Source of the DNA: Candidatus Woesearchaeota archaeon
Lineage (GTDB): Archaea > Nanobdellota > Nanobdellia > Woesearchaeales > JAFCFN01
Assembly (NCBI GenBank): GCA_017608625.1
Contig: JAFCFN010000002.1
Location: 28,099 to 92,098 of the forward strand
Length of the DNA stretch: 64,000 nucleotides
Direction: 5' to 3'
The notes under the pieces: model-generated
What the model saw: the letters and a program-made list of their open reading frames with translations, nothing else
Databases searched by the model: none
What the model was told of the DNA's origin: nothing
Shown here: positions 31,617-57,655 of the stretch, piece by piece
Layout: the number at the start of each line of letters is the position of its first letter
Numbering within the stretch: the first letter of the stretch is position 1
Made by a program: the position numbers and the translations under genes

Positions 31617-31754
31617 GGGCCCGTGGTCTAGTGACTCAAGCAAAAATATTTGCTTGTTGCTAGATGCTATGACAACGCCCTTACAAGGCGTAGGTCACCG
31701 GTTCGAATAAACCAAAATAAATTAATAGTGGTTATGAAACTCCGGTCGGGCCCA
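31617..31754 (+). tRNA. tRNA-Val(TAC) with introns in the D-loop (31634-31665) and at 59/60 (31708-31740)
   Basis: Removing both BHB-flanked inserts (central helices CUAG/CUAG and UUCG/UGAA) gives a standard cloverleaf; anticodon at 31682-31684. Confidence 0.92.
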
Positions 31755-31787
31755 TTTATTTAAAAAATATAACTTTATATTTTAAAT

Positions 31788-31965
31788 GCGGTAGTAGTCC
31801 AGCAACCTTTTTTGAATGAAAGGTTGGACAATGGTAAGATAGCACCCTGCCACTAAAGTAAATCTTTGGCGATGGTGCTGACCCGGGTTCGAAAACAGTA
31901 TGTAATGAAGTAGCATACTGTATAATAACTAGTAAAAAGCTATTTCGAAAATCCCGGCTACCGCA
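31788..31965 (+). tRNA. tRNA-Gly(GCC) with three introns: 15/16 (31803-31831), 38/39 (31854-31873), 59/60 (31894-31951)
   Basis: BHB helices GUCC/GGAC, UGCC/GGCG and UUCG/CGAA; acceptor GCGGTAG/CTACCGC. Confidence 0.9.
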
Positions 31966-32043
31966 TTCCAAATTTTTAAAAATCTTAAACTTTCAAATTT
32001 CTACGAAAGTTTTAAAAAAGGATTAAATCTCTTTTTGTTTTAT

Positions 32044-32228
32044 GGGCCTGTAGCTCAGCCTGGTTAGAGCACTGGTCTTATATGTCCATTGCTTTATCAA
32101 GTTGAGATAAAATTAAAAGTCTCAACAAAGCTAAGAGAGCCAGGGGTCTGGGGTTCAAAAACAGTGTGTAGTACAGTAGCATACTGTAACAGCTAGTAAA
32201 GCTGTTTTTGAAAGTCCCTGCAGGCCCA
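32044..32228 (+). tRNA. tRNA-Ile(TAT) with introns at 37/38 (32083-32137) and 59/60 (32160-32214)
   Basis: BHB helix CUUA/UAAG fixes the anticodon TAT at 32079-32081; acceptor GGGCCTG/CAGGCCC. Confidence 0.88.
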
Positions 32229-32241
32229 TATTTAATATTAT

Positions 32242-32346
32242 GCCCCGGTGGTGTAGTCCGGCCAAGCATAATGGCTTTTCGAGCCATTGACATGGGTTCA
32301 AATTTTGTAGGTTAATGCTTACATAATGAAATTCCCGTCCGGGGCA
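32242..32346 (+). tRNA. tRNA-Glu(TTC) with intron at 59/60 (32303-32332)
   Basis: ATGGC-TTTTCGA-GCCAT anticodon arm; BHB helix UUCA/UGAA. Confidence 0.92.
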
Positions 32347-32367
32347 TCTTCTCTAAAGGTGATATTA

Positions 32368-32481
32368 ATGAAAAGAAGTTCAAGAAGGTGGAAAAAGAAA
32401 GGACAGATGAGATGGAAGTGGCAAAGAAAAAGGATGAAGAAAGAGAAAAGAAAAAGGAAGATGAGAGCAGGAAAAATATAA
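32368..32481 (+). CDS. rpl41e: Ribosomal protein L41e-like (37 aa; not in ORF track)
   Basis: MKRSSRRWKKKGQMRWKWQRKRMKKEKRKRKMRAGKI resembles archaeal eL41; GGTGA SD upstream. Confidence 0.85.
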   Translation: MKRSSRRWKKKGQMRWKWQRKRMKKEKRKRKMRAGKI

Positions 32482-32517
32482 AATAATAAAATGCAACGAA
32501 TTTACAATATTTATAAA

Positions 32518-32532
32518 CGAAAGCTTTAAATA
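32518..32532 (+). promoter_or_regulatory. BRE/TATA promoter of the rRNA operon
   Basis: CGAAAG-CTTTAAATA about 140 nt upstream of the 16S start. Confidence 0.55.
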
Positions 32533-32672
32533 GGACTGCTTTATTTTTATTAATACATCACCTTTCTTATTAAGAAATTCACCTATCGGTGAGTTTCTTT
32601 TTCAGATGTATGCTTGACTGAAAGTCAAGTATGAAATAAGAGTTATTTGATTGAAAGTTGGTCTTGCTCCTA

Positions 32673-34135
32673 ATTCCCGTTGATTCTGCGGGAGGTTGCT
32701 GCTATCTGGTTGAGACTAAGCCATGCAAGTCTGCTTCTCTTCGGAGAGGCGGCGAACTGCTCAGTAACACGTCGGTAATCTGCCCTTAGGTCCAGGATAA
32801 CCTTGGGAAACTGAGGCTAAACCTGGATAGGAGATTGAAATTAGAAAATTCTTTCTCTGAAAAGAAATGCCTAAGGATGAGCCGGCGGCTGATTAGGCTG
32901 TTGGTGGTGTAATGGACCACCAAACCTACGATCAGTACGGGCCTTGAGAGAGGGAGCCCGGAGAAGGGTACTGAGAAACTGATCCTAGCCCTACGGGGTG
33001 CAGCAGGCGCGAAACTTCCACAATGCACGCAAGTGTGATGGAGTCAACCAGAGTGCTCATGTTCTCATGGGCTTTTGCCAAGAGTAAATATCTTGGCGAA
33101 TAAGGGGTGGGCAAGACTGGTGCCAGCCGCCGCGGTAACACCAGCGCCCCAAGTGGGAACCGCTTTTATTGGGCCTAAAGCATCCGTAGCCGGTTCAACA
33201 AATCTTCTGTGAAATTGTTGGACTTAATCTAACAACGTGCAGAAGACACTGTTGAACTTGGAACTGGGAGGAGTTAGAGGTATTTCGGGGGGAGCGGTAA
33301 AATGCTATAATCCCCGAAAGACCACCTGTGGCGAAGGCGTCTAACTAGAACAGCTTCGACGGTGAGGGATGAAAGCTAGGGGAGCAAACCGGATTAGATA
33401 CCCGAGTAGTCCTAGCCGTAAACACTGCGAGCTAGATGTTGCATCTTCTTAGGGAATATGCAGCATCGAAACGAAGGTGCTAAGCTCGCCGCCTGGGAAG
33501 TATAGTCGCAAGACCGAAACTTAAAGAAATTGGCGGGGGAGCGCCACAACGAGTGCGGCGTGCGGTTTAATCTAATTCAACGCAGATAACCTCACCAGGG
33601 GCGACGGCAGAATGAAGGTCAGTCTGAAGGGCTTACCTAACAAGCCGAGAGGTATTGCATGGCCGCCGTCAGCTAGTGTCGTGAGATGTCCTGTTAAGTC
33701 AGGTAACTAGCGAGACCTATATCTACAATTGCTACCAAGCTATGCGATTGGGCACATTGTAGAGACTGCCTGGGAAACCAGGAGGAAGGTGTAGGCGACG
33801 GTAGGTCTGTATGGTCCGAATCTCCTGGGCTACACGCGCGCAACAATGGTAGGGACAATGGGATGCAACTCCGAGAGGAGAAGCTAAACCTCTAAACCCT
33901 ATTTTAGTTCAGATTGAGGTTTGCAACTCAACCTCATGACGTCGGAATTCGTAGTAATCAGGCTTAAGCATAGCCCGGTGAATATGTCCCCGCTCCTTGC
34001 ACACACCGCCCGTCATCCCAGCCGAGCAGGGTTTAGGTGAGACTTAGTTTTTGACTAAGGCGAATCTAAACTCAGTGAGGAGGGGCAAGTCGTCACAAGG
34101 TAACCGTAGGGGAACCTGCGGTTGGATCACCTCCT
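32673..34135 (+). rRNA. rrs: 16S rRNA (archaeal, no intron seen)
   Basis: ATTCCCGTTGATTCTGCG start, GTGCCAGCCGCCGCGGTAA, TTGCACACACCGCCCGTC and 3' GGATCACCTCCT; flanks 32637-32655 and 34142-34160 form a perfect 19-bp processing stem. Confidence 0.98.
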
Positions 34136-34168
34136 TTTTACTTCAATCAAATAACTCTTATGTTCAAT

Positions 34169-34307
34169 GGGCCTGTAGTTCAGTCTGGAAGAACATCGCC
34201 CTTGCAAGGAAAGAGAGTGTTTTATCATTTCTTTCCAAAGCAAGGCGGGGGTCACGGGTTCAAAACAATTACTCGTTTGAGTAATTATGAATTTCCCGTC
34301 GGGTCCA
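34169..34307 (+). tRNA. tRNA-Ala(TGC) in the rRNA spacer, introns at 37/38 (34207-34242) and 59/60 (34265-34293)
   Basis: G3:U70 pair, anticodon TGC, BHB-like flanks. Confidence 0.92.
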
Positions 34308-34399
34308 TTTTTTAGATTAAGTTTTATGCAATTCAAAAGCTTAGCTTTTGAATGAAGGGTAAAGACTTCATGTTTATGATACCATGCATAGATTAAAAG

Positions 34400-37295
34400 A
34401 CGCTATTAGGTGGATGACTAGGCTCAAACGCTGATGAAGGGCATGGCAAGCTGTGATAAGCTCCAGGTAGTCGCATGCAGACTTGGATCTGGAGATGCCT
34501 GAATAGGACTTCCTGTCAGAGTAAAACTCTAACACTCCGTAAGGAGGGGGAACGCAGGGAATTGAAACATCTTAGTACCTGCAGGAAAAGAAATCAATTG
34601 AGATGCCGTAAGTAACAGCGAGTGAAAGCGGCACAAGGCAAACTGAATTCTCAAAAGAAATTTTGAGAAGATGTGGGGTTGTAAGGCTGCTCCTTTAAAT
34701 CCTCTTTAGGGAACTTGAATTTCCTTGGAAAAGGAAGCCATAGAGGGTGATAGCCCCGTAGAGGTAACTTAAAAGGATGTGGAGCAGTTCTTGAGTACTG
34801 CTTATTGAATATTAAGCAGGAAACTAGGAGCCATTAACTTCTAACCTTAAATACGTTTTGAGTCCGATAGCAAATCCAGTACAGTGATGGAAAGTTGAAA
34901 AGAACCCTTAACAGGAAGTGAAAAGATCCTGAAACCTAATAGCTATAGTGGGGTACAGCTCTTAGGAGTTGTACTGTCCGTTTTGAATAACGTGCCAGGG
35001 AGTGTATCTAAGTGGCGAGGATAATTAAAAAGGATCCAAAGGGAAACCAATAAGCCTGCAGCTTGCGAGAGGCAAGGTATGAAAGTGCCTGGAGTCACTT
35101 GGATACGACCCGAAACCAGGCGATCTAGCCGTGGGTAAGGTGAAGCAAGGGTAAAACCTTGTGGAGGCCTGCAGAGGTTCTACAGACAAGTGTTCTTCTA
35201 ACCTATGGCTAGGGGTGAAAAGCCAATCGAGCCTGGTGATAGCTGGTTCCTACCGAAGTTGGCCGTAGTCAAGTTTCGGAGGAGATGGCTAAAACGATAA
35301 AGCTACGGATTGGGGATTTAGGTTCCGAAAGGAATTGGTCTCCTGTCCAACTCTGAATGTTTTAGCATCATAGAATTCGAAAAACGGGGGCCCGGGGTAA
35401 GCTTGGGTCCCGAGAGGGGAACAACCCAGACTATGGTTAAGGTCCCTAAAAACTGACTAAGTGTTAAAGGGTGAAGAGTGTCCATGGCCCAAGACAGCGA
35501 GGAGGTTGGCTTAGAAGCAGCCATCCTATAATAAGTGCGTAATAGCTTACTCGTCGAGGTTGTGGGCCTCTAAAATGGACGGGGCTAAGTCAGTTACCGA
35601 TACCATAGACTATCTAAAAGATAAGTGGTAGGTAGGCGTTTTACTGGGGTAGAAGTATACTCAAAAGAGTATATTGACCCAGTAAAAATGAGAATCCTGG
35701 CGAGAGTAAGATCTTAGCAGAGTGAGAATCTCTGTCACTGAAAGGGCAAGGGTTCCTTGGCAATGCAGGTCAGCCAAGGGTAAGTTGATCCTAAATTGCA
35801 ATATAACTTATTGCTTTGAAAGGGAAAAAGGTTAACATTCCTTTACTGTCTGAGTATGTGTGGTGACACAAGTTCAGTTTCTGACCCTTCGGAATAGACA
35901 GACATCAACTGTCGTTGATGTTAACAGAGATAAATCAGAGGAGTATTATAATGATGAGAATCTGATTAAACTCTGGAATAGCAGATCTTTGGTCTGTTCT
36001 GTTGATTTCTGGAGGCCTTGAAAAGGGAACTGAAAAAAATCTCAGGCAATCATACCCAGAACCGGCACAGGTGCCCCTAGGTGAGAAGCTTAAAGTGTGA
36101 AGGACTAATCTAGTTAAGGGAATTCGGCAAATTAGCCCCGTGCCTTCGGTATAAGGGGTCCCTGCTCTTGTTTCTGTATAGAAGCGAAAGCAGGGTGCAA
36201 TGACAAGGGATGTCTGACTGTTTAACAAAAACGTAGCCTTCTGCTAAGCTGTGAAGCTGTGTATAGAAGGTGACGTCTGCCCAGTGCGCGTACTTTAAAC
36301 TCTCTTCCAAGAGAGCTAAGAGCGCGTAAACGGCGGGAGTAACTATAACTCTCTTAAGGTAGCGAAATGCCTTGCCGTTTGAATGACGGCCTGCATGAGT
36401 GGCGTAACAAGATGTCCGCTGTCCCCAACTAGAATCCTCTGAACACTCTTTCCTGGTGCAAAGGCCAGGGATTTCCAGTGGGAAGCAAAGACCCCGTGAA
36501 ACTTTACTGTAGCCTGTCATTGCAATGCGAGTTTTATTGTATAGCGTAAGTAGGAGTCGTTATGTCTTGGTCGCAAGATCAAGAATAGACGCCAATGTAA
36601 CACTACTCTTTAGAACTTGTGTTGCTAACTTAGCAATAAGGACAGTAGCAGGTGGACAGTTTGGCTGGGGTGGCACCCTGCTGAAAAGATATCAGTAGGG
36701 CCCAAAGGTTGGCTCAAGTGGGTCAGAAATCCACTGTGGAGTGCAAGGGCAAAAGCCAGCCTGATTGGATTTCTAACAAGAAGAAATCCAAAAACGAAAG
36801 TTTGGCCTAGCGAACCTCTGTGTCCTCCTTAATGGGGGTCAGAGATAACCGAAAAGTTACTCCGGGGATAACAGAGTGGTCGCGCCCGAGAGCTCAAATC
36901 GACGGCGCGGTTTGCTACATCGATGTCGGCTCTTCCTATCCTGGGCGTGCACAAGCGCCCAAGGGTGAAGGTGTTCACTTATTAAAAGGGATCGTGAGCT
37001 GGGTTCAGAACGCTGTGAGGCAGTTTGTTTGATATCTACTGGAAATGTTGGATGTCTGAAAGGAAAGAAGCCATAGTACGAGAGGAACTGGCTTCTGAGG
37101 CCTCTGGTTTACCGGATATCTGACAAGGTAAATCCGGGCAACTACGCCTTATGAGGATAAGAGCTGAAAGCATCTAAGCTCGAAGCCTCCCTTGAAAAGA
37201 GACATCCTAGAACACAGATAGAAGATCTGTTTGATGGGAGTGGTGTGTAAGCACCAAGGCAACGAGGTGTTCAGCACGCACTTTCCAACAGTTCG
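34400..37295 (+). rRNA. rrl: 23S rRNA (ends approximate)
   Basis: GAATTGAAACATCTTAGTA, GGTAGCGAAATGCCTTG and GGGATAACAG motifs; flanks 34381-34396 and 37298-37313 form a perfect 16-bp stem. Confidence 0.97.
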
Positions 37296-37428
37296 TATTA
37301 ATCTATGCATGGTTTATTTTTATTCTTCAATAAGATTATGGACATATAGCGATAGCTCTCTTTATCAAACAAACTAACTGAACCCAGCTCACTAAAAATT
37401 TTTAAACAACAATTCTTTTTATTATAAT

Positions 37429-37833
37429 ATGGCACGCCTGTATAGAAATATGCAAATATGGCAATTGGGTTACAATCTAGTAATAGATATTTACAAACTT
37501 ACTGAAAAGTTTCCAAAAGATGAAAAAAGTAATTTAATCTCTCAAATGAGAAGAGCTGCCACGTCAATACCTATAAACATTGCTGAAGGAAGTACAAAGA
37601 GGTCTTATAAGGAATTCTTAAATTTTTTATCTTATGCTTATGGTTCTGCTAAGGAGCTTGAAGTTTTATTATTGTTGTCCAGCGATTTAAGATATATTAC
37701 AAATAAAAAATATAAACAAATAGAGAAAAAACTTGATGAATTGATGGCTAAATTATTTCTTTTCATGAGCAACATAGAGAAAAGAATTAAAGATAAGAAA
37801 TACAATTTTTTTAGAAAATGGAGATTATTTTAA
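37429..37833 (+). CDS. Four-helix-bundle protein (23S rRNA IVS-protein/Avd-like family)
   Basis: [34 protein letters not shown] signature. Confidence 0.9.
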
Positions 37834-37834
37834 A

Positions 37835-38809
37835 ATGATTTGTTTAGGAATAGAAAGCACTGCACATACATTTGGAATAGGAATAGTTGATGATAAAGGC
37901 AAGATTCTTGCTAATGTGAAAGATGTTTTTACAACAGAAAAAGGCGGGATGATTCCAGTGGAGGTTGCAAAACATCACAGAAATTGTTACAAAGACGTTA
38001 TTCAAAAGGCGTTGGATGTGGCTGGAATCAAATTAGAAGATGTTGGTTTAATAGCATTCTCACAAGGTCCTGGTTTGGCTCCTGCTTTGTTGGTTGGACT
38101 GGATGTTGCAAAAGAATTAGTGAAAAAACTAAATGTTCCTGTAATTGGTGTTAATCATTGTATTGCTCATTTGGAAATTGGGAACTTAGTTACTGGAGCA
38201 AAAGACCCTGTTCTACTTTATGCGTCTGGTGCTAACACTCAGATTATTGCTTATGAAGGAAGCAAATATAGAATCTTTGGAGAAACTCTTGATATGGGTG
38301 TAGGTAATTTTATTGATTCATTTGCCAGAGAGATGGGAATAGGTTTTCCTGGTGGTCCTAAGATAGAAAAATTAGCTTTAAAAGGAAAAAATTTTATTGA
38401 GCTACCTTATGTTGTCAAAGGAATGGATGTAAGTTTTTCAGGATTATTAACTAATCTAAAACAGAAATTTCATTCTGGAAAGTTTAGTAAAGAGGATTTA
38501 TGTTACAGTATGCAAGAAACAGTTTTTGCAATGTTATTAGAGGTAAGTGAGAGGGCAATGGCCCATTGTAATAAGAATGAATTGTTGCTTGGAGGAGGGG
38601 TTTGCTGCAATAAAAGATTACAGGAGATGGCTAAAAAGATGTGCCAAGAAAGAGGTAGCAAATGTTTTATTCCTGAAAACAGTTTGTTAGTAGATAATGC
38701 TGCAATGATAGCATGGTTAGGAATCACTGAACATAAAGCTGGAGTTAAAACAGAATTAGACATTAAACCTTATCAGAGAACTGACCAGGTGGAAGTTAAA
38801 TGGAGATAG
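37835..38809 (+). CDS. kae1: t6A biosynthesis protein Kae1
   Basis: GIESTAH, VNHCIAH, GETLD and DNAAMIA motifs. Confidence 0.97.
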
Positions 38810-38842
38810 ATTTAAAAATATATTAAAAAATCTTATTCTCAT

Positions 38843-38959
38843 AGCCCTGTGGTGTAGTGGTCAAGCATTGCTGGCTCTGGCCCAGTAGACCCAGGTTCGA
38901 ATCAACCGTGAAATCAGTACTGCTTTACATTCGCGGTTACGAGTCTCCTGGCAGGGCTA
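38843..38959 (+). tRNA. tRNA-Gln(CTG) with intron at 59/60 (38902-38945)
   Basis: GCTGG-CTCTGGC-CCAGT anticodon arm; BHB helix UUCG/CGAG. Confidence 0.92.
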
Positions 38960-39027
38960 TCATCATTCTAAAGATTTAAATGGATTTAAACGAGGACTAT
39001 ATATAAGAAAAAGCAAACCTAATTCTT

Positions 39028-39192
39028 TTATTTTGCCCTTACTCTCTCGAACTTTTTTTCTTTCTCTGGTATTAATGGTTCAAATATTGCACCACAAGCT
39101 TTGCAGATTGTTTCATCTTTCTTTGGATTATATACTACATTTAAAGATCCGCATTCAGGGCATTCTTTTCTGAATTTTTTTGGTGTTGTCAT
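39028..39192 (-). CDS. TFIIB-type zinc-ribbon mini-protein (54 aa; not in ORF track)
   Basis: MTTPKKFRKECPECGSLNVVYNPKKDETICKACGAIFEPLIPEKEKKFERVRAK. Confidence 0.8.
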   Translation of the reverse strand: MTTPKKFRKECPECGSLNVVYNPKKDETICKACGAIFEPLIPEKEKKFERVRAK

Positions 39193-39233
39193 CTTATTCT
39201 TCTTGAATTCAGCTAATTAATAAACTTTTTGTT

Positions 39234-49599: not shown

Positions 49600-50421
49600 A
49601 TGGATAAAAAAGAGGTTGGGCAAAAGATAGAAACAGAGTTAAAGTTGCAGGGAAAGAGTAAGCAGACAATAAAGATGTACTCTTTCTATAACCTAGGTTT
49701 TCTGGATTTTATTAAAAAAGACCCTGAACAGATTAGAGAGGATGACATAAAACAATATCTAGCAGATTTGCTTGAAAAGGGCAATGATATAGGAACAGTG
49801 GCTTTAGCAAGGTCTGCTTTAAGGTTTTTTTATGATGGAATGCTAAAAAAAGGTATAACTGTTGATATTAAAACGCCAAAAAAACAGAGAAAACTGCCTG
49901 ATGTGCTAACAAAAGATGAAATTAAGGCATTGATCAATGCTGCTGATAATTTAAGAGACAAATTACTTATAGAGTTTATGTATTCTGCTGGTTTAAGAGT
50001 GAGTGAATGCGCTAGTTTAAAGAGAAGTGATTTGAATATTGAGGAAAAAACTGGTTTGTTAAAGCATGGCAAAGGAGGGAAAGATAGGTTTTTCATTTTA
50101 TCAGATAGGCTTACAGAAGACTTAAAACAGTATTTGGCCAACCATAATAATGAGTATATCTTTCCTGTTGAAAACAAGCCTATATCTACAAGAAGAATAC
50201 AGGCTATTGTGCATAAATTAGCAAAAAAAGCAGGCATAAAGAAGAAAGTTTATTGCCATTTATTAAGACATAGTTTTGCAACTCATCTGCTAGAAGCAGG
50301 AGTTGATATTAGAAAGATACAAGAGTTACTTGCACATTCAAATTTGCAAACAACACAGTTTTATACTCAAGTTAGTAAGAAAGAATTAAAGAAAGTTAAG
50401 AGTCCTCTTGACAGTTTATAA
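49600..50421 (+). CDS. xerA: XerA-like tyrosine recombinase
   Basis: R-K-H-R-H-Y catalytic set: GLRVSE, GKGGKDR, HLLRHSFATH, LLAHSNLQTTQFY. Confidence 0.93.
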   Translation: MDKKEVGQKIETELKLQGKSKQTIKMYSFYNLGFLDFIKKDPEQIREDDIKQYLADLLEKGNDIGTVALARSALRFFYDGMLKKGITVDIKTPKKQRKLPDVLTKDEIKALINAADNLRDKLLIEFMYSAGLRVSECASLKRSDLNIEEKTGLLKHGKGGKDRFFILSDRLTEDLKQYLANHNNEYIFPVENKPISTRRIQAIVHKLAKKAGIKKKVYCHLLRHSFATHLLEAGVDIRKIQELLAHSNLQTTQFYTQVSKKELKKVKSPLDSL

Positions 50422-50488
50422 TGTTAAATAGGTTAACAAATAAGCTTTTAAAAGATAGTTTATAAGTTTTAAGTTTTGATTAAAAGTT

Positions 50489-51031
50489 TTAATCTAATAT
50501 TTTTTGATCAAAAGCATCAAGAGTTAATTGTGGTTTTATTTTTACAATATTATGCTTTGTTTGGAGTTGTCTAAAATAAGGGTTTAATTTAAAGTGCATT
50601 CTACCGTTAATTACTCTTTTTATTATAGGTATGCCTTTTTTAATTAGGCTGTCTATATAGTATCTTGCTGTTGATTCTGAGATGTTGTGTAAAGCTGCTA
50701 TATCTGCATAACTTAAGTAGTTCTGTTCTTCCTTGTATATGGTTAAGAATATCTTTTTTTCTTTGTGATTTAGTTGTTCTATTTCCTGTTTTTCTATGTT
50801 TTGGGAGTTTAGGGCTAATTCTAAAGCTTCTAATCTTTCTTCTATTTTTTCTAGTTTTAGAGAAAGTTCAGCTATTAGCTCATAGTTGCTCTCTATTTCA
50901 TTTGTATTTTCGTTAATAGCTGTTAAATGGTCTTCTAATTCCTCTTTTAAGGCATTAATTTCCTCTTTTAGAGAATTATCAAGATTTAAAAGCTGTTTTT
51001 TGCTATTTAAGTCAAGAATAATACTTACCAC
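50489..51031 (-). CDS. Coiled-coil plus winged-helix protein
   Basis: N-terminal heptads, then LSYADIAALHNISESTARYYIDSLIKKG HTH with wing. Confidence 0.8.
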   Translation of the reverse strand: MVSIILDLNSKKQLLNLDNSLKEEINALKEELEDHLTAINENTNEIESNYELIAELSLKLEKIEERLEALELALNSQNIEKQEIEQLNHKEKKIFLTIYKEEQNYLSYADIAALHNISESTARYYIDSLIKKGIPIIKRVINGRMHFKLNPYFRQLQTKHNIVKIKPQLTLDAFDQKILD

Positions 51032-51085
51032 CCCTCTGTTTTTAGCAAGGGTGTTTAGCTTAAAAATATTTCTGTGATTAAATAG

Positions 51086-51571
51086 TTATTTTCTTGTTAA
51101 AATTTTTGCTAAATATTGCTTTTCTTTACCTTTTTTGATCACTGTTATCTCGTCGGTATCCTCAATTTGCTCTAGAATTCTGTAAAAAGTACTTTTAGAA
51201 CATAATGCTTGTTCTTCAACAATGATGTCTCTTAATTGTAAGGCTGTAATTTTGCCATATTTTTGTATTAAAGAAAGGATAGAATGCCTGAGATAGTCTT
51301 TTGACTGCCTCTTTATTGTTTTTATAATCCTTGTGCTTATTGTTTTTCTTTCTACTGGCTGAAGTTTATATGCTTCAAGAACCTCTTTTACTATTCTTCT
51401 GATTCTTTCTTCAGAGACTTGAGAGGTTAAATAGTCTATTTTATCGTCGGTAAGTTTATGTTTCTTATTAAAATATTCAATCCAACTGGCCAGCTTATTT
51501 ATATCAGATTTAACTTTAGAAAAAGCTAATTTTATCTCTTCCATCAATTTGTTTTTGTTAAAAAAGATCAT
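51086..51571 (-). CDS. Coiled-coil plus C-terminal winged-helix-like protein
   Basis: ILSLIQKYGKITALQLRDII...SKSTFYRILEQIE; start may be Met10. Confidence 0.75.
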   Translation of the reverse strand: MIFFNKNKLMEEIKLAFSKVKSDINKLASWIEYFNKKHKLTDDKIDYLTSQVSEERIRRIVKEVLEAYKLQPVERKTISTRIIKTIKRQSKDYLRHSILSLIQKYGKITALQLRDIIVEEQALCSKSTFYRILEQIEDTDEITVIKKGKEKQYLAKILTRK

Positions 51572-51616
51572 TTTTTATTAGAAAATAGTCTTAAATATAT
51601 AAATTTTTTGTATTTT

Positions 51617-51749
51617 TGGGAATATTTTGGGAATATATTGAGACTATTCTGGGAATATTTTGGGAATATATATCGTCGATAAATAATATAAAATTGAGAC
51701 TATTATGAGACCATTTTGAGACTATCTTAGGAATGTTCTGAGAATGTAA
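51617..51749 (+). repeat. 11-bp tandem array, 5+5 units
   Basis: Units start at 51617, 51628, 51639, 51650, 51661 and 51695, 51706, 51717, 51728, 51739; consensus TGRGAMTATTY. Confidence 0.88.
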
Positions 51750-51921
51750 GATAAAACAAAAATAACAATTATTTTTTCAAAAATATGATAAAAATGTTTT
51801 GAAAATTTTGATTTAGTTTTTTGAATTTTTAATTTTTTACAAAAAGTAAGTAGTGAAGTTAAAATTTGAAGTTTAGAAATTAAATGAAGAGTTGATCAAA
51901 GCAGGATGAGTTGTATTTTAA

Positions 51922-52213
51922 ATATAAAGTGAGATTAGGAGGTAGGGGTTTTGGGAAGATAGACCTCTCAGAAGAGTTTTTGATATACAAAAGTGAGAGT
52001 TAAGGTATTAAAAAAAGGTATAGAAAGGGGTTTAAGGCCTTTAAATAGGGCTCTGATATATAAAAGTGAGAGTTAGGTACATGGTCAAAGGGGCTTTTAA
52101 AGGTCTGAAACATGGGTAAGATGGTCCAATATATAGGAAAGTGAGAGTTTAAATATAAGTGGTTGTATGGTTGATGCAGGCAATTGGCCTTTTTTTATAT
52201 AGGAAAGTGAGAA
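51922..52213 (+). repeat. Five same-orientation iteron-like repeats ATATA(N1-3)AAAGTGAGA
   Basis: AAAGTGAGA starts at 51926, 51990, 52063, 52138 and 52204. Confidence 0.88.
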
Positions 52214-52217
52214 TAAA

Positions 52218-53453
52218 CTATAGGAAGGCTGTTAATTTTGGTTGTGTTTTAAGCTTATTCAGGATTTTGCTCCTTTTTAAGATGTAGTCTGCATTAAACC
52301 TGAATCTATGCTGTATAAGCTGCTTTACATAACGTAGCATTTCATTTTTATCCTTAAAAGTGAGAGGTTTAGTGTTTAAGGCCTTTCTAATAGCTGATCT
52401 GCAAACCCACACTCCTAATGGACAGTAGTATTCTCCTGTTATGAATCTTAAAACCAGCGCAGATGCCTGTTTTTTGAGTTTAGAGAGCTTTTCTAGCACA
52501 GATAGTCTTGCTGCATAATAACCGCCTCCTGTTTGCTCTGCATAGGTTTTTCTACCTTCATAAGGCTCATAATCAGTCATAGTTTGTATTTCAGAGCTTA
52601 TATTCCAGCTAGATTTGGGCAGATATGTCTCAAAAAGCTCGTATTGCCATATTTCTGGCATAAATAAAGCTAAATAGTAATTTCCCAAATAAGAGCCAAA
52701 ATAAAGGCTGTAATGCATTTTTTCATAGTTCTTAATGTCTGATATTAGCTTTTTTGCTATAATGTCATCTACAGCTGTTATTGCCCATCTGGTTGGAACT
52801 AGCTTTCTCTGGGTTTTTAAGCCTAAGTTAGCTGTTGACAGTAGTTTAGCTAGTTGATTTTCATCCAAACCATGTTCGTATAATGATATGATTGAATTGT
52901 GAGCCTTCAAATCTTGGGCATCTACAGCCTTCTCTACTATTTTTGGGATTTTGGGATTAGAGGTTATCTTAGCTTGCTTTATTTTGGCATTTGGACCTAT
53001 AGGAAGCAAATATGGAGGAAAATTAAGCTGTGGCTTTGGCTTTTCTTTTAGGTTGATTTCAACATCAACTGGCTTTATTGCCATTGCTATTTCTTTGCTT
53101 ATATCAAGGAGTTTATTGCTCTGTTTTACTTCTAGCTTAAATCTCGAGTTTATTAGGCTAGATCTTAGCTGAATGATTTTTTGTATTTGGAAATTGTGAT
53201 CTGCCCAGTAAGTCTGGGCATCATAAAGCCAAATATCTTGGGTGTTTTCAGGAGGAGCCAATATTCCTATGTTAAGATAAGGATAGTTGTGCCTACCGAC
53301 AAAAATAGAGGGAGAAGCAGAGTAGAACTCTTGCTTTTCTAGTTTATTTTTTATTTTAAAGAATGCGTTTGTTTTGGCTAAAATAGGACAATAGATTCTC
53401 CCACAAAATCCTCTACCTTTGCATTTAAGACACTGGATTTTCATAAAAAACAA
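52218..53453 (-). CDS. nreA: Nre-family DNA repair protein with C-terminal PIP box
   Basis: CLKCKGRGFCGRIYC, RKLVPTRWAITAVD, YYAARL and terminal QPKLTAFL. Confidence 0.9.
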   Translation of the reverse strand: MFFMKIQCLKCKGRGFCGRIYCPILAKTNAFFKIKNKLEKQEFYSASPSIFVGRHNYPYLNIGILAPPENTQDIWLYDAQTYWADHNFQIQKIIQLRSSLINSRFKLEVKQSNKLLDISKEIAMAIKPVDVEINLKEKPKPQLNFPPYLLPIGPNAKIKQAKITSNPKIPKIVEKAVDAQDLKAHNSIISLYEHGLDENQLAKLLSTANLGLKTQRKLVPTRWAITAVDDIIAKKLISDIKNYEKMHYSLYFGSYLGNYYLALFMPEIWQYELFETYLPKSSWNISSEIQTMTDYEPYEGRKTYAEQTGGGYYAARLSVLEKLSKLKKQASALVLRFITGEYYCPLGVWVCRSAIRKALNTKPLTFKDKNEMLRYVKQLIQHRFRFNADYILKRSKILNKLKTQPKLTAFL

Positions 53454-53476
53454 AAAAGAAGAAGAGATATTTTAAT

Positions 53477-53665
53477 TTATTCTTTCAGATCAGAAATTCC
53501 TGTAAAGAACAAGCCAAGTCCTATCATTATTAACATCAATACAATCCCTCCTTTAATTACAGCTAGTGTTGCTGCTGCCCAACTTACAAATGTTGGTGTC
53601 ATTACTAAATATATTGGTCCAATAATAAGTACTAGGCCAATTAATAATTCTAACCATTTATTCAT
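53477..53665 (-). CDS. Small two-TM membrane protein
   Basis: 62 aa; GGTGA SD. Confidence 0.7.
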   Translation of the reverse strand: MNKWLELLIGLVLIIGPIYLVMTPTFVSWAAATLAVIKGGIVLMLIMIGLGLFFTGISDLKE

Positions 53666-53730
53666 TTGGCATCACCTAATTAGAAAATACCTATTAGATA
53701 TAAAAATGTTTTTATTTTTCAAAAAAAGAA

Positions 53731-54048
53731 TTATTTAATTTCTATTCTTTTTGCTCTAAAACCTTTTTTTTGTATATGGGTTTTGCCGCATTCTTTGCAT
53801 TTATATCTTAAATCTGTTTTCTTTGTTGTTTTTGCTCCTGTCATCTTAAACTTAGAAACTGCTTTTTTTGAGTATCTTCCTAAATTTCCAAGACCTCTTG
53901 CTTTTCCCCTTCTTTTAGCTCTTTTCTTACTACCATAACTCATAGGATGAGCCGAACCTGGTGTTTTTCTTTTAGCTTGGGTTATAGTATGCTCTGTGTG
54001 CTTTTTACAGTAAGGGCAGTATCTCTTAGTAGTTTTAGGAATTTTCAT
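53731..54048 (-). CDS. rpl44e: 50S ribosomal protein L44e
   Basis: YCPYCKKHTEH, KTTKK and YKCKECGK motifs. Confidence 0.96.
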   Translation of the reverse strand: MKIPKTTKRYCPYCKKHTEHTITQAKRKTPGSAHPMSYGSKKRAKRRGKARGLGNLGRYSKKAVSKFKMTGAKTTKKTDLRYKCKECGKTHIQKKGFRAKRIEIK

Positions 54049-54083
54049 ATTGCTGAAGAAAAACAGCTAATTTAAAAATCTTG

Positions 54084-54710
54084 CTATATTTTGGCTGCTT
54101 TACCTCTGTTAATTAGCACTTGAGCTATTTCTGCTGGCAACTCCACTTCATCTCCGTCTTCGAATGGGCCATATTCTTTTAAGTCTAGACCAATGAATTT
54201 CTGAACAAAATCTTTTATCTCAACTTTGATTGTGTCTTTTTTTGGAATTTCTTCTTTAACATCTTCTTTTGGAACTTCTTTTTCTTCTATTTTAACAGAA
54301 GGAGAATTGCCTTGGAGAACATTCATTATTATGTCTTGTCTGTTTTTGTTTAAGACTTTTAGTAAAGAATTAAAGAGTTGCTCTTCCTCTTTTAGTAGGG
54401 CTGAGGTATCAATGATAGCATGCTCTGTTCTGCTTTTATTTAATGCCATGTCTATTATCTTTTTTTCTCTTCTTTCGTACAGCTCTTTTAGAATCTTTTT
54501 TATGTTCTCGATTTGTTTTTCTGTTTTTTCTCTTTCCTCTGCATCAAAAAGCTCATCTTTTTTTTGCTTAACAAACATGATTTTTTCATTTAGATAAGAA
54601 ACAACATCAATAAAGAAAGTATCAGGAAGTTTTTGTAAGTCTTTTCTGCTTTTTTCTCTTCTCAAAATTTCAAAAAGAGTTTCATATGTGATGTTCACTT
54701 CTTTTTCCAT
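54084..54710 (-). CDS. GINS complex subunit (Gins51-type)
   Basis: Helical A domain (LQKLPDTF, LYERREKKI) then B domain (FIGLDLKEYGPF..GDEVELP..A..LI). Confidence 0.85.
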   Translation of the reverse strand: MEKEVNITYETLFEILRREKSRKDLQKLPDTFFIDVVSYLNEKIMFVKQKKDELFDAEEREKTEKQIENIKKILKELYERREKKIIDMALNKSRTEHAIIDTSALLKEEEQLFNSLLKVLNKNRQDIIMNVLQGNSPSVKIEEKEVPKEDVKEEIPKKDTIKVEIKDFVQKFIGLDLKEYGPFEDGDEVELPAEIAQVLINRGKAAKI

Positions 54711-54826
54711 GGATGTTAAAATAAGTCAAGGTGTATATAAGCTTTTTTGTGATAGAGAATAGTCTTTACTCAAGATGATTTGGCTTTAAAATATAAAGAA
54801 AAAGAAAGAAAAATTTATTTTCTTTC

Positions 54827-57178
54827 TTATGCTGTGCTTACGCTAATGTCTGTTAGTGTTGTACCAGACACAGTTACTTCTTCCCCTGATAAAGTGTATT
54901 TATCAGGCTGAGCAACTACACTGCAAGCTCTTCTTGTGTCATCAGCTGTCCATCCAGCTACTACCAAAGCTACATTTCCGTTAGCATGTGTTACTAACTT
55001 AATTATAGCTTGGTTTTCTGGTATGGTTGATGCAGCGCCACATGCTGGATAGTCTAATCCAAGTGCAGCTGCTGCTGCTTTGTTGACACAAGGTCCACCA
55101 ACAATTATAGCGTTTTGTGCAGTTATGTCAGTAACTTCTGTGTCTAGTTTTGATGTACCAACAGACATTGGTGTTACTTGTACTGCTCCTTCAGCAACTG
55201 ATGTTGTGGTTGTTGCTGCTAGTTCAGTTACATATACATTGTAATCATTCTCTTCTTCTGGTACCCATATTTTTAAGTAGCTTCCATCATCTTTGTCAAG
55301 AACCATATAGGTTCCAAATGCTGTAAGTTCGTATTCTACTTCATTGTCATTGTCTGCTCCTCCGTCAAATGTACCTGTTAAAGATCCAATTTCTACATCA
55401 TTGTCATCAGTAGAGGATATTGTCACTTCTAGATCTGTTGCTTCACTTACATCGCTGTCTTCATCAATATTATCGGCTGATTCATCAAATTCGATTGTTG
55501 CGGTTCCACTGCTAGGATCCTTCAGTGTTATATTCATGTCATTTTTCGTCTGCAGTACATTTATAACGTCAATTATTTTACTTGCATTAGAGACATTACA
55601 AGGTGCTGCTACATTACATAAAGTAATCTTACCATTGCTTGGAATATCTGTTCCTCCTGTTTCATTCAACACATAAATTGTTGGTGAATCTATCAAAGTT
55701 TCATTAGTCTGTACTGTTGTTTTAGAACCTGTACTTAAATCCTCAAATACAACTTCATCCTCACTAGCGTCTATATCATATACTTCATAAATTTTTGTTA
55801 CTGCATTATCACCTGTACCTTCATTTAAGATAATTATTTTGTCTTCCTCTATTCCTTTATATTTCCCTGTAAGATTAAATAAATCAGCGTATTTTGTAAT
55901 GTTTGTATCTGGATAACTTCCCTCATAAGGTGTAAAGCTATATGCTTCGCCATCTCTGTTAGTAAATGTTATTTTTAATTTATCTCCGCTTCTAGACAAC
56001 TCAATATAGTCCTTTGAACTAGAATCCAATGCTGGGTCTACTGAAACAAAGCTTAGCTTAAATGTTCCAAATAGCGGATCAATAAATTCTTCTCCTATTT
56101 CTAAATAGTTTTTCTCATCATCATCCATATCTGAAGGAGTTACTGTGAAAGTTATGGTATCTATTGCTTCAATATTACTTACTGTGGCTGTTACACCTTC
56201 TAAGTCTTCCCCATCAACTTCTACTTGTTGATCAGTAGTACCTTCTGGAATAACTATTTTATCGCTTCCAACAAAGATTTCTACAGATGCTGTTTCTGTT
56301 GGAACTGTCTGCATAAAGATCTCGCTGATATAGTAATCTCCTGCAACTGTATCTCCTTCTTCAACTTGATATGCTTTGTCATTTATCTTTATTGTTGCTT
56401 CGTCTGTATCTGTGTTAGCTCCAACTAATTCTATTGTATCATCTCCTATGGTTACTGTTTCTCCAACAGCAATAGTTTGTGTTACATCTGAAGCATAAAG
56501 CACCAATTCATCGTCGCCTGCATCCATATCTGGATCAAATGTTAATTCCTTGCCTGCGATTACAATCTTTTCATTGTCATCTAAAGCGGTAGCATTCAAT
56601 GTGTCGTCAAAGTCTACTACTATTTTATATGCGTATCCTGAATCTTGGTTTAAGTATAGAACAGGTATTTCGTCACTTGCTTTATCAGCATTAGCAACGT
56701 AATCCTCTTCATTTAATGAACCAAAAGTAACAGCGTCACCACTCAACTGAATTTCCTGAGTATAATCATAGTCTTCGTCTTCTGATTCATCAGTCACTGT
56801 TCCATCTGCTAAAATTGTTGGAAGATCAGCTTTTTTGAGTTCTCTGTCAGTCTCATTTAATCCTTCTCCATAGTTTAAATCATCAGCTGTTCCTTGAATA
56901 AGTACGCTTTCTCCAGTCACAGTCACAACTTCTGCTGCTCCTTCTACTGGTGTTGTCATTCTAGCTTGCAAACTTGCAGCTATGTCTGTTACACCAATTA
57001 CGTCAGAACTAGCTGCATCTGCTCCTACCACCAATATTGTATTTAGCTCACCATCTTTCAAGAATGGTGATGGGTAGTCGCTCAGATCTGCTGCCATTGC
57101 TCCTAACACAGTTGCTCCTAGCATCACTGCGCCAGAACCTATAGCAGCAATCCTTTTGATTGCTTTCTTCAGTTTCAT
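54827..57178 (-). CDS. S-layer protein
   Basis: KRIAAIGSGAVMLGAT signal, DLSDYPSPF, VVGADAASSD and C-terminal IIVGGPCVN; very acidic; GGAGGT SD. Confidence 0.9.
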   Translation of the reverse strand: MKLKKAIKRIAAIGSGAVMLGATVLGAMAADLSDYPSPFLKDGELNTILVVGADAASSDVIGVTDIAASLQARMTTPVEGAAEVVTVTGESVLIQGTADDLNYGEGLNETDRELKKADLPTILADGTVTDESEDEDYDYTQEIQLSGDAVTFGSLNEEDYVANADKASDEIPVLYLNQDSGYAYKIVVDFDDTLNATALDDNEKIVIAGKELTFDPDMDAGDDELVLYASDVTQTIAVGETVTIGDDTIELVGANTDTDEATIKINDKAYQVEEGDTVAGDYYISEIFMQTVPTETASVEIFVGSDKIVIPEGTTDQQVEVDGEDLEGVTATVSNIEAIDTITFTVTPSDMDDDEKNYLEIGEEFIDPLFGTFKLSFVSVDPALDSSSKDYIELSRSGDKLKITFTNRDGEAYSFTPYEGSYPDTNITKYADLFNLTGKYKGIEEDKIIILNEGTGDNAVTKIYEVYDIDASEDEVVFEDLSTGSKTTVQTNETLIDSPTIYVLNETGGTDIPSNGKITLCNVAAPCNVSNASKIIDVINVLQTKNDMNITLKDPSSGTATIEFDESADNIDEDSDVSEATDLEVTISSTDDNDVEIGSLTGTFDGGADNDNEVEYELTAFGTYMVLDKDDGSYLKIWVPEEENDYNVYVTELAATTTTSVAEGAVQVTPMSVGTSKLDTEVTDITAQNAIIVGGPCVNKAAAAALGLDYPACGAASTIPENQAIIKLVTHANGNVALVVAGWTADDTRRACSVVAQPDKYTLSGEEVTVSGTTLTDISVSTA

Positions 57179-57442
57179 CTAAACACCTCCGTGTTTTTTT
57201 CTGAGGACTAGAACTCTTTTCGGCTAGCCTCTTTTTTATTTTTATTTGCGCAAATCTTCAGCCTCAATAGCTGAGACTGAATATAGCTATAGCATATATG
57301 ACGGTTTATAAAGTTTTCGGTATTTCTATATGCTACAAAATATATTTAGAAAAATAATTATCAAATTTTAGCGTCGATATTTTTGTTACTAAATGGGGGA
57401 TAAAGAGTGTATTACTATTATCAAACTTGTTTTTGAAAAAAA

Positions 57443-57655
57443 TGCGGGGAGGAGGAATTTCGTATAACCGCAAAGGGGACTTCGGTTGCTGAAGGCAACT
57501 AGAAGTCGCCTAAAGCGTTAACCGATTTTGCGGTTAATTCGAACCCCCGTAGGCACTAAGCCAACAGGTTGCCTACACATGAAGTGGCCTAAGCTTAGAC
57601 TTTTCTAAAAATTGATTAGGATAACTGTCCCGTTTGACCACTCCGGCATCCCCGC
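57443..57655 (-). tRNA. tRNA-Leu(TAG) with three introns: 30/31 (57595-57624), 37/38 (18 nt), 59/60 (57457-57537)
   Basis: BHB helices GGAC/GUCU, CUUA/UAGG and UUCG/CGAA; long variable arm; acceptor GCGGGGA/TCCCCGC. Confidence 0.9.

Follow-up and report, generated by a model that had tools for sequence, protein, structure and literature searches.

Seven tRNA genes of a DPANN archaeon with fourteen predicted BHB introns, one in every gene at the T-loop position 59/60

The window analyzed in the current study, a stretch of 64,000 nucleotides with about 30% GC, comes from a DPANN archaeon of the Woesearchaeota/Pacearchaeota group. It carries seven tRNA genes, Val(TAC), Gly(GCC), Ile(TAT), Glu(TTC), Ala(TGC), Gln(CTG) and Leu(TAG), whose first base is at 31617 and last base at 57655, and 14 introns were predicted within them. 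The rRNA operon (32673..37308, + strand; 16S 32673-34135 and 23S 34386-37308, located with Rfam) is flanked by a Val-Gly-Ile-Glu cluster and holds tRNA-Ala in its 16S-23S spacer. Each of the seven genes has one intron at position 59/60. The load ranges from one to three introns per gene, the mean of 2.0 being that of seven tRNAs out of perhaps 40-46, four of them from a single cluster. A previous, sequence-only reading had counted 2, 3, 2, 1, 2, 1 and 3 introns (14 in total) at sites 15/16, the D-loop GG, 30/31, 37/38, 38/39 and 59/60; the counts were borne out gene by gene, and the sites agree with the coordinates re-derived here.

All genes except tRNA-Leu lie on the + strand. In tRNA-Val (31617..31754; 138 nt unspliced, 73 nt spliced), intron 1 (31634..31665, 32 nt) falls between D-loop G18 and G19 and was assigned to the HBh' type, with a central helix H of CTAG/CTAG and without an outer helix. 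Intron 2 (31708..31740, 33 nt) is at 59/60, with H = TTCG/TGAA, the T stem as h and AACCA/TGGTT as h'. Three introns interrupt tRNA-Gly (31788..31965; 178 nt unspliced, 71 nt spliced). The first (31803..31831, 29 nt, 15/16; H = GTCC/GGAC) has an h' of 7 bp and lacks an outer helix; the second (31854..31873, 20 nt; H = TGCC/GGCG) is placed at 38/39 by its BHB, with 37/38 as a possible alternative; the third (31894..31951, 58 nt, 59/60; H = TTCG/CGAA) forms two hairpins (z = -5.3) and is homologous to intron 2 of tRNA-Ile. The latter gene (32044..32228; 185 nt unspliced, 75 nt spliced) has intron 1 (32083..32137, 55 nt; H = CTTA/TAAG) at the canonical 37/38 and intron 2 (32160..32214, 55 nt; H = TTCA/TGAA) at 59/60, and tRNA-Glu (32242..32346; 105 nt unspliced, 75 nt spliced) has a single 59/60 intron (32303..32332, 30 nt; H = TTCA/TGAA).

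The tRNA-Ala gene (34169..34307; 139 nt unspliced, 74 nt spliced) contains intron 1 at 37/38 (34207..34242, 36 nt; H = CTTG/AAAG with 3/4 pairs, h' of 9 bp), the boundary of which may slide across a repeated AGG, and intron 2 at 59/60 (34265..34293, 29 nt; H = TTCA/TGAA), with an h' of 8 bp after one C.A mismatch (z = -4.0). Downstream of kae1, tRNA-Gln (38843..38959; 117 nt unspliced, 73 nt spliced) has one 59/60 intron (38902..38945, 44 nt; H = TTCG/CGAG), with AACCGTGAA/TTCGCGGTT as h' after one C.A mismatch. The class II tRNA-Leu (57443..57655, - strand; 213 nt unspliced, 84 nt spliced) was read with a long variable arm; parsing that region as short instead was rejected on inspection of the sequence, as the BHB test then failed. 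Its introns are a 30-nt intron in the anticodon stem at 30/31 (57595..57624, - strand; H = GGAC/GTCT), without an outer helix, an 18-nt intron at 37/38 (57570..57587, - strand; H = CTTA/TAGG) and an 81-nt intron at 59/60 (57457..57537, - strand; H = TTCG/CGAA), the last with a 10-bp h' of TAACCGCAAA/TTTGCGGTTA and a folding energy of -40.9 kcal/mol (z = -6.4).

The sequence-only reading expected standard scanners to miss these genes, and this was borne out for the two applied here: on the raw window ARAGORN made a single, mis-bounded call (Glu, 32241-32315), and the Rfam tRNA model placed none of the seven above threshold. A T-arm/acceptor scanner recovered exactly these seven, with 4 spurious intron-type matches in a control of 1.05 Mb of bacterial DNA. 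The failure of ARAGORN and Rfam on the raw sequence is what decaying tRNA pseudogenes with junk insertions would give, but that explanation is close to refuted. Exact removal of the BHB-bounded segments yields canonical, perfect cloverleaves in all seven cases, and ARAGORN called each spliced sequence a tRNA with the anticodon given above. T8, A14, the D-loop GG, G53, TTCRAAT, C61 and A73 are kept, as are the identity elements G3:U70 in Ala and the long variable arm in Leu. Between orthologues, the acceptor, T and anticodon stems differ in a compensatory manner (seen in Val of the relatives L090 and L093 and in Gly of L090), tRNA-Ala occupies the rRNA spacer in relatives as well, and the T-arm/acceptor scanner found no intact, intron-less duplicate in the window. 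The exons have 59-63% GC and the introns 33%; TATA-like boxes can be read about 30-38 nt upstream of the genes, and T-runs downstream of some of them.

A BHB core is present in 14/14 introns, the central helix having 4/4 pairs in 13 and 3/4 in one, which upholds the earlier assignment to the BHB type. At 59/60 the outer helix is the 5-bp T stem in 7/7 genes, and the pairing of T-loop UUCR with an intron YGAR, previously proposed as the 4-bp central helix, likewise recurs in all seven (TTCG/TGAA once, TTCG/CGAA twice, TTCA/TGAA three times and TTCG/CGAG once); a random 4-mer would pair with TTCG in 8/256 cases and with TTCA in 4/256. Among 16 independent 59/60 introns, A57 stands opposite T in 9/9 and G57 opposite C (4) or T (3), a covariation of R57 with its intron partner (Fisher p = 0.019). 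The 59/60 introns fold with z-scores of -1.6 to -6.4 into the T stem plus an inner helix, joined by symmetric 8x8 loops or by the full H helix; in Val, Glu, Ala and Gln the isolated, AU-rich H helix is absent from the minimum-free-energy fold. For Gly and Ile, a longer helix can take up the 5' bulge, which makes them relaxed substrates. A need for a broad-specificity EndA had also been proposed. Such a need is implied only by the D-arm and anticodon-stem introns without an outer helix and by the Gly and Ile 59/60 introns with their absorbable 5' site; several of those at 59/60 come close to a strict hBHBh'. No EndA or RtcB gene was found in the window or in the relatives' loci examined.

Intron-less copies of the window tRNA genes occur naturally in relatives. 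Compared with the window, the Val gene of L090 is shorter by exactly 32 nt at the site of intron 1 and its Gly gene by exactly 29 nt at intron 1 and 20 nt at intron 2, exactly 55 nt are absent from its Ile gene at intron 2, and the gap at Glu is 30 nt; these gaps equal the lengths of five predicted introns. A 59/60 intron was present in 6 of 16 tRNAs sampled from relatives, against 7/7 in the window (p = 0.007), and is missing from Glu in L090 and L002, from Ile in L090 and from Gln in L104, L086 and L084. Thus complete occupancy would be a feature of this genome or its nearest kin, in a clade that often uses 59/60. The earlier proposal of a lineage-wide invasion accordingly loses its lineage-wide part, while the invasion fits the intron families across tRNAs, the same-site replacement and the clean presence or absence in relatives.

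The alternative that the whole clade inherited its 59/60 introns vertically from a common ancestor, relatives having lost them precisely and none having been gained recently, would account for the filled site in Val of the window, L090 and L093, in Ala of the window, L087 and L014, and in Ile of the window and the more distant L002. In L087, tRNA-Ala has introns at both of the window's sites, and the 59/60 helix is TTCG/CGAA instead of TTCA/TGAA, a compensatory change. However, occupants of the same site can be unrelated. The 59/60 introns of Val in L090 and L093 differ in sequence from that of the window, L090 Gly carries an unrelated 26-nt intron and L002 Ile an unrelated 39-nt intron, while Ile keeps orthologous introns at 37/38 (35 nt in L090, 27 nt in L002). 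Moreover, Gln in three successive relatives, L104, L086 and L084 (Kae1 identity 94, 89 and 83%), has a homologous 37/38 intron and an intact T-loop, Glu is intron-less in L090 and L002 alike, and the extra D-arm and anticodon-loop introns of the window are absent from L090. Purely ancestral inheritance is therefore improbable. Several window introns look recently gained, the direction (gain here or loss in relatives) being set by parsimony over few relatives; for Gln, the exon stems also differ from those of relatives, so that an allele may have been replaced instead of an intron simply gained.

Introns of different tRNAs resemble each other. The window Gly and Ile 59/60 introns share AACAGTRTGTA...AGTAGCATACTGTA...CTAGTAAA, the Val and Gly introns of L090 share CGCGAAATCGGTTATGAAAG, and a module AACCG...CGGTTA occurs in Val, Gln and Leu of the window and in L100-L102. 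For the 5' module of Leu intron 3, L082 has an identical sequence (25/25) at a site outside tRNAs, and window positions 11243 and 25704 resemble it. The T-loop insertions could thus be a small palindromic MITE- or REP-like element that inserts as DNA and persists only where EndA can excise it from the T-arm, with no spread through RNA or gene conversion. In keeping with this, a sequence directly next to the gatD start codon, at a distance of 11.5 kb, is identical to the Leu intron module over its first 25 nt, the long 59/60 introns of L100-L102 resemble a conserved 5' hairpin with added hairpins, and AACCGN{5,9}GTTRACG has three occurrences in the window where 0 are expected, two of the three outside tRNAs, although this pattern was drawn up after its matches had been seen. 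We nevertheless consider such an element doubtful: the full-length Leu intron aligns weakly with the intergenic copies (z about 2.5), no transposase, terminal inverted repeats or target-site duplication were identified, and the viral contigs searched contained no copy. Where the T-loop has A57 (nine cases), the end of the intron complements that loop instead of repeating it, which argues against a target-site duplication.

Introns at this site have precedent in another DPANN archaeon, ARMAN-2 (Candidatus Micrarchaeum acidiphilum), with a 59/60 intron in pre-tRNA-Cys(GCA) and introns at 53/54 and 59/60 in pre-tRNA-Pro(GGG); its epsilon2 EndA cleaves a 59/60 intron in vitro, indicating that the site can be spliced (PMC3239211). 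As in the window, the T-loop is interrupted with a BHB or relaxed hBH on the T arm, and tRNA-Ile(UAU) has a 37/38 intron. In ARMAN-2, however, two such genes are highlighted and disruption affects 56% of tRNA genes, whereas all seven genes sampled here carry the 59/60 intron, and the 59/60 introns of the window measure 29-81 nt compared with 13 nt in ARMAN-2 Cys. Multi-intron tRNA genes with "translocatable" introns are described for Thermoproteales (Sugahara 2008 and Fujishima 2010, as relayed by PMC4033280, PMC4390854 and PMC8450103). As far as these accounts go, Thermoproteales genes hold as many as three introns, as in the window, and the two also share the use of non-canonical sites and a likeness of introns between different tRNA species, the last suggesting spread within a genome. 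Thermoproteales are hyperthermophilic crenarchaeotes of another superphylum, unlike this 30% GC DPANN archaeon; they average 0.84 introns per gene against 2.0 in the window sample, the record among complete genomes assessed being 71 introns in 46 genes (PMC8450103), and the filling of one site in every sampled gene sets the window apart from them.

For the same broad group of organisms, the main text of Kaneta 2018 (PMC5829648) associates DPANN EndAs carrying an L3 loop with more disrupted tRNA genes, includes one Pacearchaeota and one Woesearchaeota genome in its alpha4 EndA set, and finds tRNA sets to be incomplete when called with tRNAscan-SE 2.0, in keeping with window-like genes being missed. 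That main text makes no mention of the T-loop or T-arm and does not report 59/60 occupancy, intron families or recent gains.

Introns might also be kept as a shield, breaking the T-arm and 3' attachment sequence used by integrating elements, as in the protection hypothesis of Randau and Soll (PMC4090602). Duplicated tRNA fragments at the tRNA-Gln locus of the relatives L086 and L084, with a LAGLIDADG endonuclease ORF in the former, suggest that tRNA genes of the clade are targeted by mobile DNA. In L086 a 5' fragment comprising nt 1-22 is followed by a stretch of about 1.06 kb that contains the ORF, and then by a full tRNA-Gln. This layout resembles the tRNA-Thr(GGU) locus of Caldiarchaeum subterraneum, which combines a fragment from the 5' part of a tRNA, a recombinase element of 1.8 kb and a tRNA bearing an additional intron (PMC3293823), but the L086 ORF is a homing endonuclease, not a recombinase, and L086 is a relative, not the window. 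The full tRNA-Gln of L086 has an extra D-loop intron and is followed by a 14-nt 3' fragment. Protection is unlikely as the explanation; it would account for maintenance and not for origin or site, and is compatible with the explanation given below.

In the proposed mechanism, the 3' segment of the intron would pair with four exon nucleotides ending two bases before the 5' splice site, giving a 4-bp helix between two 3-nt bulges in the precursor RNA; EndA would cleave each bulge after its second nucleotide, and the exons would then be joined by an RtcB-type ligase. Site 59/60 corresponds in the T arm to the canonical 37/38, each following base six of a 7-nt loop on a 5-bp stem; the T stem serves as the outer helix and U54-U55-C56-R57 as one strand of the central helix, and the T-loop would form only after splicing. 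U54-U55-C56-R57 is nearly invariant across tRNAs. An intron ending in YGAR-NN could therefore be spliced, unadapted, from the T-loop of any tRNA, so that 59/60 would be a universal landing site. Similar introns in different tRNAs, same-site replacement and intact Glu, Ile and Gln T-loops in relatives suggest that it was filled here repeatedly and recently. To the whole explanation, functional tRNA genes with 14 protein-spliced BHB introns and a 59/60 landing site repeatedly and recently filled, we assign a probability of about 0.85. While introns of the 59/60 kind are already known from ARMAN-2 and Thermoproteales, what is notable in this archaeon is the density of tRNA introns in the sample, at 2.0 per gene, together with apparent recent gain.

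On the raw window, ARAGORN called a single tRNA, Glu with wrong bounds, and the Rfam tRNA model scored 21.9 bits at this mis-bounded site (threshold 29), so the expectation of the sequence-only reading that tRNA scanners miss such genes was borne out. Seven genes, Val(TAC), Gly(GCC), Ile(TAT), Glu(TTC), Ala(TGC), Gln(CTG) and Leu(TAG), were parsed by hand from GC-rich islands, and ARAGORN was rerun after the predicted introns had been taken out. With exact intron removal, all seven were recognized as cloverleaf tRNAs carrying the expected anticodons. T8, A14, the D-loop GG, G53, TTCRAAT, C61 and A73 were conserved in every product, and identity elements were retained (G3:U70 in Ala, the long variable arm in Leu). 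The genes contain 2, 3, 2, 1, 2, 1 and 3 introns in the order listed, 14 in total, located at 15/16, between the D-loop Gs, at 30/31, 37/38 (three introns), 38/39 and the T-loop site 59/60 (seven introns), in agreement with the sequence-only reading. Intron sequence (550 nt) exceeds exon sequence (525 nt) in these genes, and the density is 2.0 introns per gene in a sample that is small (seven genes) and partly clustered.

A scanner requiring a T stem with TTCRA, an optional gap after base 59 and a 7-bp acceptor stem returned the same seven genes and nothing else, and thus no tRNA with an intact T-loop in the window. Run on 1.05 Mb of control loci from bacteria, the scanner produced four spurious intron-type matches. 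A relaxed version yielded only AT-rich false positives in the window, and there was no further tRNA in the 8 kb past its 3' end. An alternative parse of the Leu gene, with introns at 26/27 and 37/38 and a 7-nt variable region, was rejected, as 26/27 offers no pairing for a central helix and such a parse would yield a Leu tRNA of class I. The tRNA-Ile gene (32044-32228) has the anticodon TAT (UAU), as do its counterparts in two related loci (L002, L090), and this anticodon has also been reported for a tRNA-Ile of ARMAN-2 (PMC3239211). AUA is presumably read without an agmatidine-modified CAU tRNA, given the UAU anticodon.

Each intron was checked for a bulge-helix-bulge (BHB) motif, in which four exon bases ending two before the 5' site pair with four intron bases ending two before the 3' site as the central helix (H), with a 3-nt bulge on each strand. 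All four pairs of H were found in 13 of the 14 introns, and three of four in the Ala 37/38 intron. At 59/60, H consists of TTCR paired with YGAR, as the sequence-only reading described, in all seven window introns and in nine more from other loci. The outer helix (h) is the 5-bp T stem at all 59/60 introns and the anticodon stem at the 37/38 introns; in structure, 59/60 on the T-arm corresponds exactly to 37/38 on the anticodon arm, both sites following base six of a 7-nt loop closed by a 5-bp stem. In most introns the inner helix (h') starts directly after the bulge or one mismatch later. The first introns of Val and Gly (D-arm) and of Leu (30/31) have no outer helix and take the HBh' form, while in the third Gly and second Ile introns the 5' bulge bases are able to pair with a U-run, giving an hBH-like form, and several introns have a mismatch between H and h'. 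The set is a mix of strict (hBHBh') and relaxed BHB forms. Free-energy folding of the T-arms recovered the T stem and the inner helix in four cases; the loops were symmetric (8x8) in Val, Ala and Gln (the last as centroid) and near-symmetric (5x6) in Glu. In Gly, Ile and Leu the full h-H helix formed. The z-scores of the folds ranged from -1.6 to -6.4.

Self-splicing introns were also considered. Group I and II introns in tRNA genes are longer than about 200 nt, have a ribozyme core and lie at 37/38. The window introns are 18-81 nt long, and no Rfam intron model matched even at E <= 10, so they do not fit this class; nor did Rfam detect a C/D-box or other known RNA family within them.

The pairing across the T-loop was examined in 16 independent 59/60 introns, comprising the seven of the window, six from relatives reached via proteins and three found by pattern. 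The intron base opposite A57 was T in nine of nine cases, and that opposite G57 was C (4) or T (3), with no mismatch (Fisher p = 0.019 for covariation of R57 with its partner). The YGAR end could in principle stem from a target-site duplication, but the A57 introns have the complementary TGAA and never an identical, TCAA-like sequence (9/9). Since the intron end is complementary rather than identical to the T-loop, the match reflects RNA pairing.

Intron-less alleles were found in L090, a relative from the same metagenomes that was reached via the ScpA neighbour of the tRNA cluster (ScpA identity 80%, about 72% nucleotide identity across aligned stretches) and shares the gene order Val-Gly-Ile-Glu-L41e-16S with the window. 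Alignment gaps of 32, 29, 20, 55 and 30 nt in L090 are as long as the introns predicted in the Val D-loop, at Gly 15/16 and 38/39, and at 59/60 of Ile and Glu, respectively; some gaps were placed a few bases off, a shift accounted for by flanking repeats. The exons are near-identical and their differences are compensatory, as at Val 7:66 (G-C to A-T), Val 49:65 (A-T to C-G), Glu 49:65 (A-T to G-C) and several positions in the Gly stems. This pattern rules out that the interrupted genes are pseudogenes, and there were moreover no broken stems or lost conserved bases.

Among the relatives, a 59/60 intron was present in Ile(TAT) of L002, Ala(CGC) of L014, Ala(TGC) of L087, Val and Gly of L090 and Val of L093. 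The T-loop was intact in Glu of L002, Lys and Asp of L009, Ala-type tRNAs of L016 and L019, Ile and Glu of L090 and Gln of L084, L086 and L104. The frequency is thus 6 of 16 tRNAs, compared with seven of seven in the window (p = 0.007). Of the lineage-wide invasion proposed in the sequence-only reading, the part that stands is that the site is common in the clade, but its full occupancy is a trait of this genome or its closest kin. Five genes allow a comparison, Val, Gly, Ile and Glu with L090 and Gln with L084 or L104: nine introns in the window stand against four in these relatives, or five if the two-intron Gln of L086 is used. The polarity of gain and loss rests on few relatives.

The clearest contrast is in the Gln gene. 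In L104, L086 and L084 (Kae1 identity 94, 89 and 83%), tRNA-Gln has a homologous 37/38 intron and no 59/60 intron, whereas in the window the pattern is reversed, and the D and anticodon stems of the window gene are also unlike those of these relatives. Together these differences suggest that the inner part of the window Gln gene was replaced. The comparisons show signs of what would be very recent intron turnover in the window tRNAs.

A rearranged tRNA-Gln was observed in L086 (1437-2715), consisting of a 5' fragment (nt 1-22), a segment of about 1.06 kb, a full tRNA-Gln with D-loop and 37/38 introns, a 68-nt spacer and, last, a 3' fragment of 14 nt identical to the exon found after a 59/60 intron. 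The 1.06-kb segment carries an ORF for a 303-aa LAGLIDADG endonuclease (PF14528, 31 bits) whose stop codon lies inside the next tRNA copy. This layout resembles the Caldiarchaeum tRNA-Thr case (PMC3293823). A shorter 5' tRNA-Gln fragment lies upstream of the gene in L084 (1493-1710).

Relationships among the introns themselves were also apparent. The 59/60 introns of Gly (58 nt) and Ile (55 nt) in the window are homologues with two hairpins each; the corresponding site in L090 holds an unrelated 26-nt intron in Gly and no intron in Ile. The Val and Gly introns of L090 share CGCGAAATCGGTTATGAAAG. A hairpin module, AAYCG-N6-CGGTTA followed by YGAR, recurs in the window Val, Gln and Leu introns, and a longer form, AACCGCRAAATCGGTTGACGCTTTG, is found at the head of 74-138-nt 59/60 introns in Lys(CTT) of L100 and in L101 and L102, from another metagenome. 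These came from a metagenome scan combining the T-loop with the intron-family pattern, in which three of ten matches were real tRNA introns (L100-L102) and the rest were chance matches in coding DNA. The same scan gave no match in the source metagenome, and the module had no matches in viral contigs. Similar intron sequences thus occur in tRNA genes of different isoacceptor type, as is characteristic of a translocatable family, and this sharing fits the 'translocatable intron' picture of Thermoproteales (PMC4033280, PMC4390854).

Sequences resembling the Leu intron were also detected outside tRNA genes. About 5 kb past the window end (17719-17743, + strand of L082), a 25-nt stretch abutting the gatD start codon is identical at all 25 positions to nt 2-26 of the 81-nt Leu 59/60 intron. 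Two dispersed hairpin elements, one of about 70 nt (11243-11310, +) and the other of about 85 nt (25704-25790, +), resemble each other almost perfectly at either end and have a looser module in common with this intron. Both lie on the strand opposite the downstream gene and, in mRNA sense, occupy the gap between an SD-like GGAGGT and the ATG of L31e (10712-11242) and of DUF655 (25131-25703). The pattern AACCGN{5,9}GTTRACG had three matches with none expected, and the fold of 25700-25840 (-) reached -35 kcal/mol (z = -3.3). The element is absent upstream of DUF655 in L090. No Rfam match or BHB motif was found in the dispersed elements; their fold has 7-bp helices and an internal loop of 3x4 instead of a 3-4-3 motif, and they were therefore rejected as BHB introns of mRNA leaders.

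Judged from sequence, the likeness between the Leu intron and the hairpins, together with the endonuclease locus of L086, hints at DNA-level mobile elements acting on tRNA genes of the clade. In a more far-reaching reading, which we consider unlikely, essentially all tRNAs of the organism would depend on T-loop splicing, and the introns would be a self-propagating hairpin family for which the invariant T-arm is a universal, EndA-excisable landing site, with copies also lying between SD-like GGAGGT sequences and protein start codons. If true, intron invasion would be ongoing and traceable between strains of one population.

The window has about 30% GC and a single rRNA operon (16S 32673-34135, 23S 34386-37308). 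Its Kae1 is at most 70% similar to its best matches, in MAGs labelled Candidatus Woesearchaeota, Pacearchaeota or Nanoarchaeota, which places the organism in that group of DPANN archaea. Window sequence is also present in JGI metagenomes 3300033148 and 3300033141, the longest recorded contig measuring 134 kb. Between tRNA-Glu and 16S lies a very basic 37-codon ORF (32368-32481, +; MKRSSRRWKKKGQMRWKWQRKRMKKEKRKRKMRAGKI) that looks like ribosomal protein L41e and has a counterpart at the same place in L002, L087 and L090. A '23S rRNA intervening sequence protein' family member (37429-37833, +; PF05635, E = 2e-37) is located directly 3' of 23S and 5' of kae1, and likewise in L104. In a JGI contig of the same population (L001, about 4099), 29 nt of 23S corresponding to window 37003-37031 are missing. 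This gap was rejected as an intron, since the missing piece is a conserved 23S segment kept in the window and L087, and is most likely an assembly or strain variant.

RNA-processing genes at 3692-4042, 5623-7794, 9326-10312 and 37835-38809 include those for RNase P subunit Pop5, Cbf5 pseudouridine synthase and Kae1 (all by Pfam), and three ORFs at 5623-7794 were read as exosome subunits from sequence, outside the family search. Cbf5 enzymes act on U55 of the T-loop. A tyrosine recombinase (49600-50421, +; Phage_integrase and SAM-like N-terminal domains, E = 5e-46) adjoins two small helix-turn-helix proteins (50489-51571, -); it could be either a housekeeping enzyme of the XerA type or a component of an integrated element. 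The ORFs at 8024-8632 (-, 202 aa), 12171-12503 (+, 110 aa) and 24596-25096 (-, 166 aa) had no Pfam family even at E <= 1.

In the proposed pathway, EndA would cut both bulges and RtcB would ligate the exons, and the T-loop, and hence the D-loop/T-loop elbow, would form only after splicing. No EndA or RtcB was found in the window or the fetched loci by Pfam searches of unassigned ORFs, nor any EndA by tblastn with the M. jannaschii protein (query verified against 1a79). Introns without an outer helix would imply an EndA of relaxed specificity, in agreement with the L3-loop EndAs described for DPANN archaea (PMC5829648). Site 59/60 would be favoured because the UUCR partner and the T stem are alike in every tRNA, so that one intron would fit all; at 37/38, in contrast, the helix would include anticodon bases and need tailoring to each tRNA.

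[quoted passage not shown] In Thermoproteales a single tRNA can carry as many as three introns, and families of introns are known (PMC4033280, PMC4390854, PMC8450103). Their mean is 0.84 introns per gene, compared with 0.21 for archaea, and the maximum in the complete genomes assessed is 71 introns across 46 genes (PMC8450103). Since 59/60 introns, multi-intron tRNAs and intron families are already documented, the kind of disruption seen here is known. What is new is the sampled density, the occupation of every sampled T-loop, the excess of intron over exon sequence and the signs of very recent turnover.

These genes are invisible to ARAGORN and the Rfam tRNA model, which could explain incomplete tRNA sets in Woesearchaeota and Pacearchaeota; Kaneta et al. 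observed that DPANN genomes, one of each group among them, have more disrupted tRNA genes and incomplete tRNA sets (PMC5829648). Should the density of 2.0 introns per gene extend to the whole genome, it would lie above the highest value reported. The population also contains orthologues with and without introns (83-94% protein identity), replacement at a fixed site and shared families, making gain and loss of archaeal tRNA introns directly comparable. A central helix built from invariant bases would explain how one intron can fit any tRNA, and predicts that 59/60 will fill up wherever EndA tolerates it.
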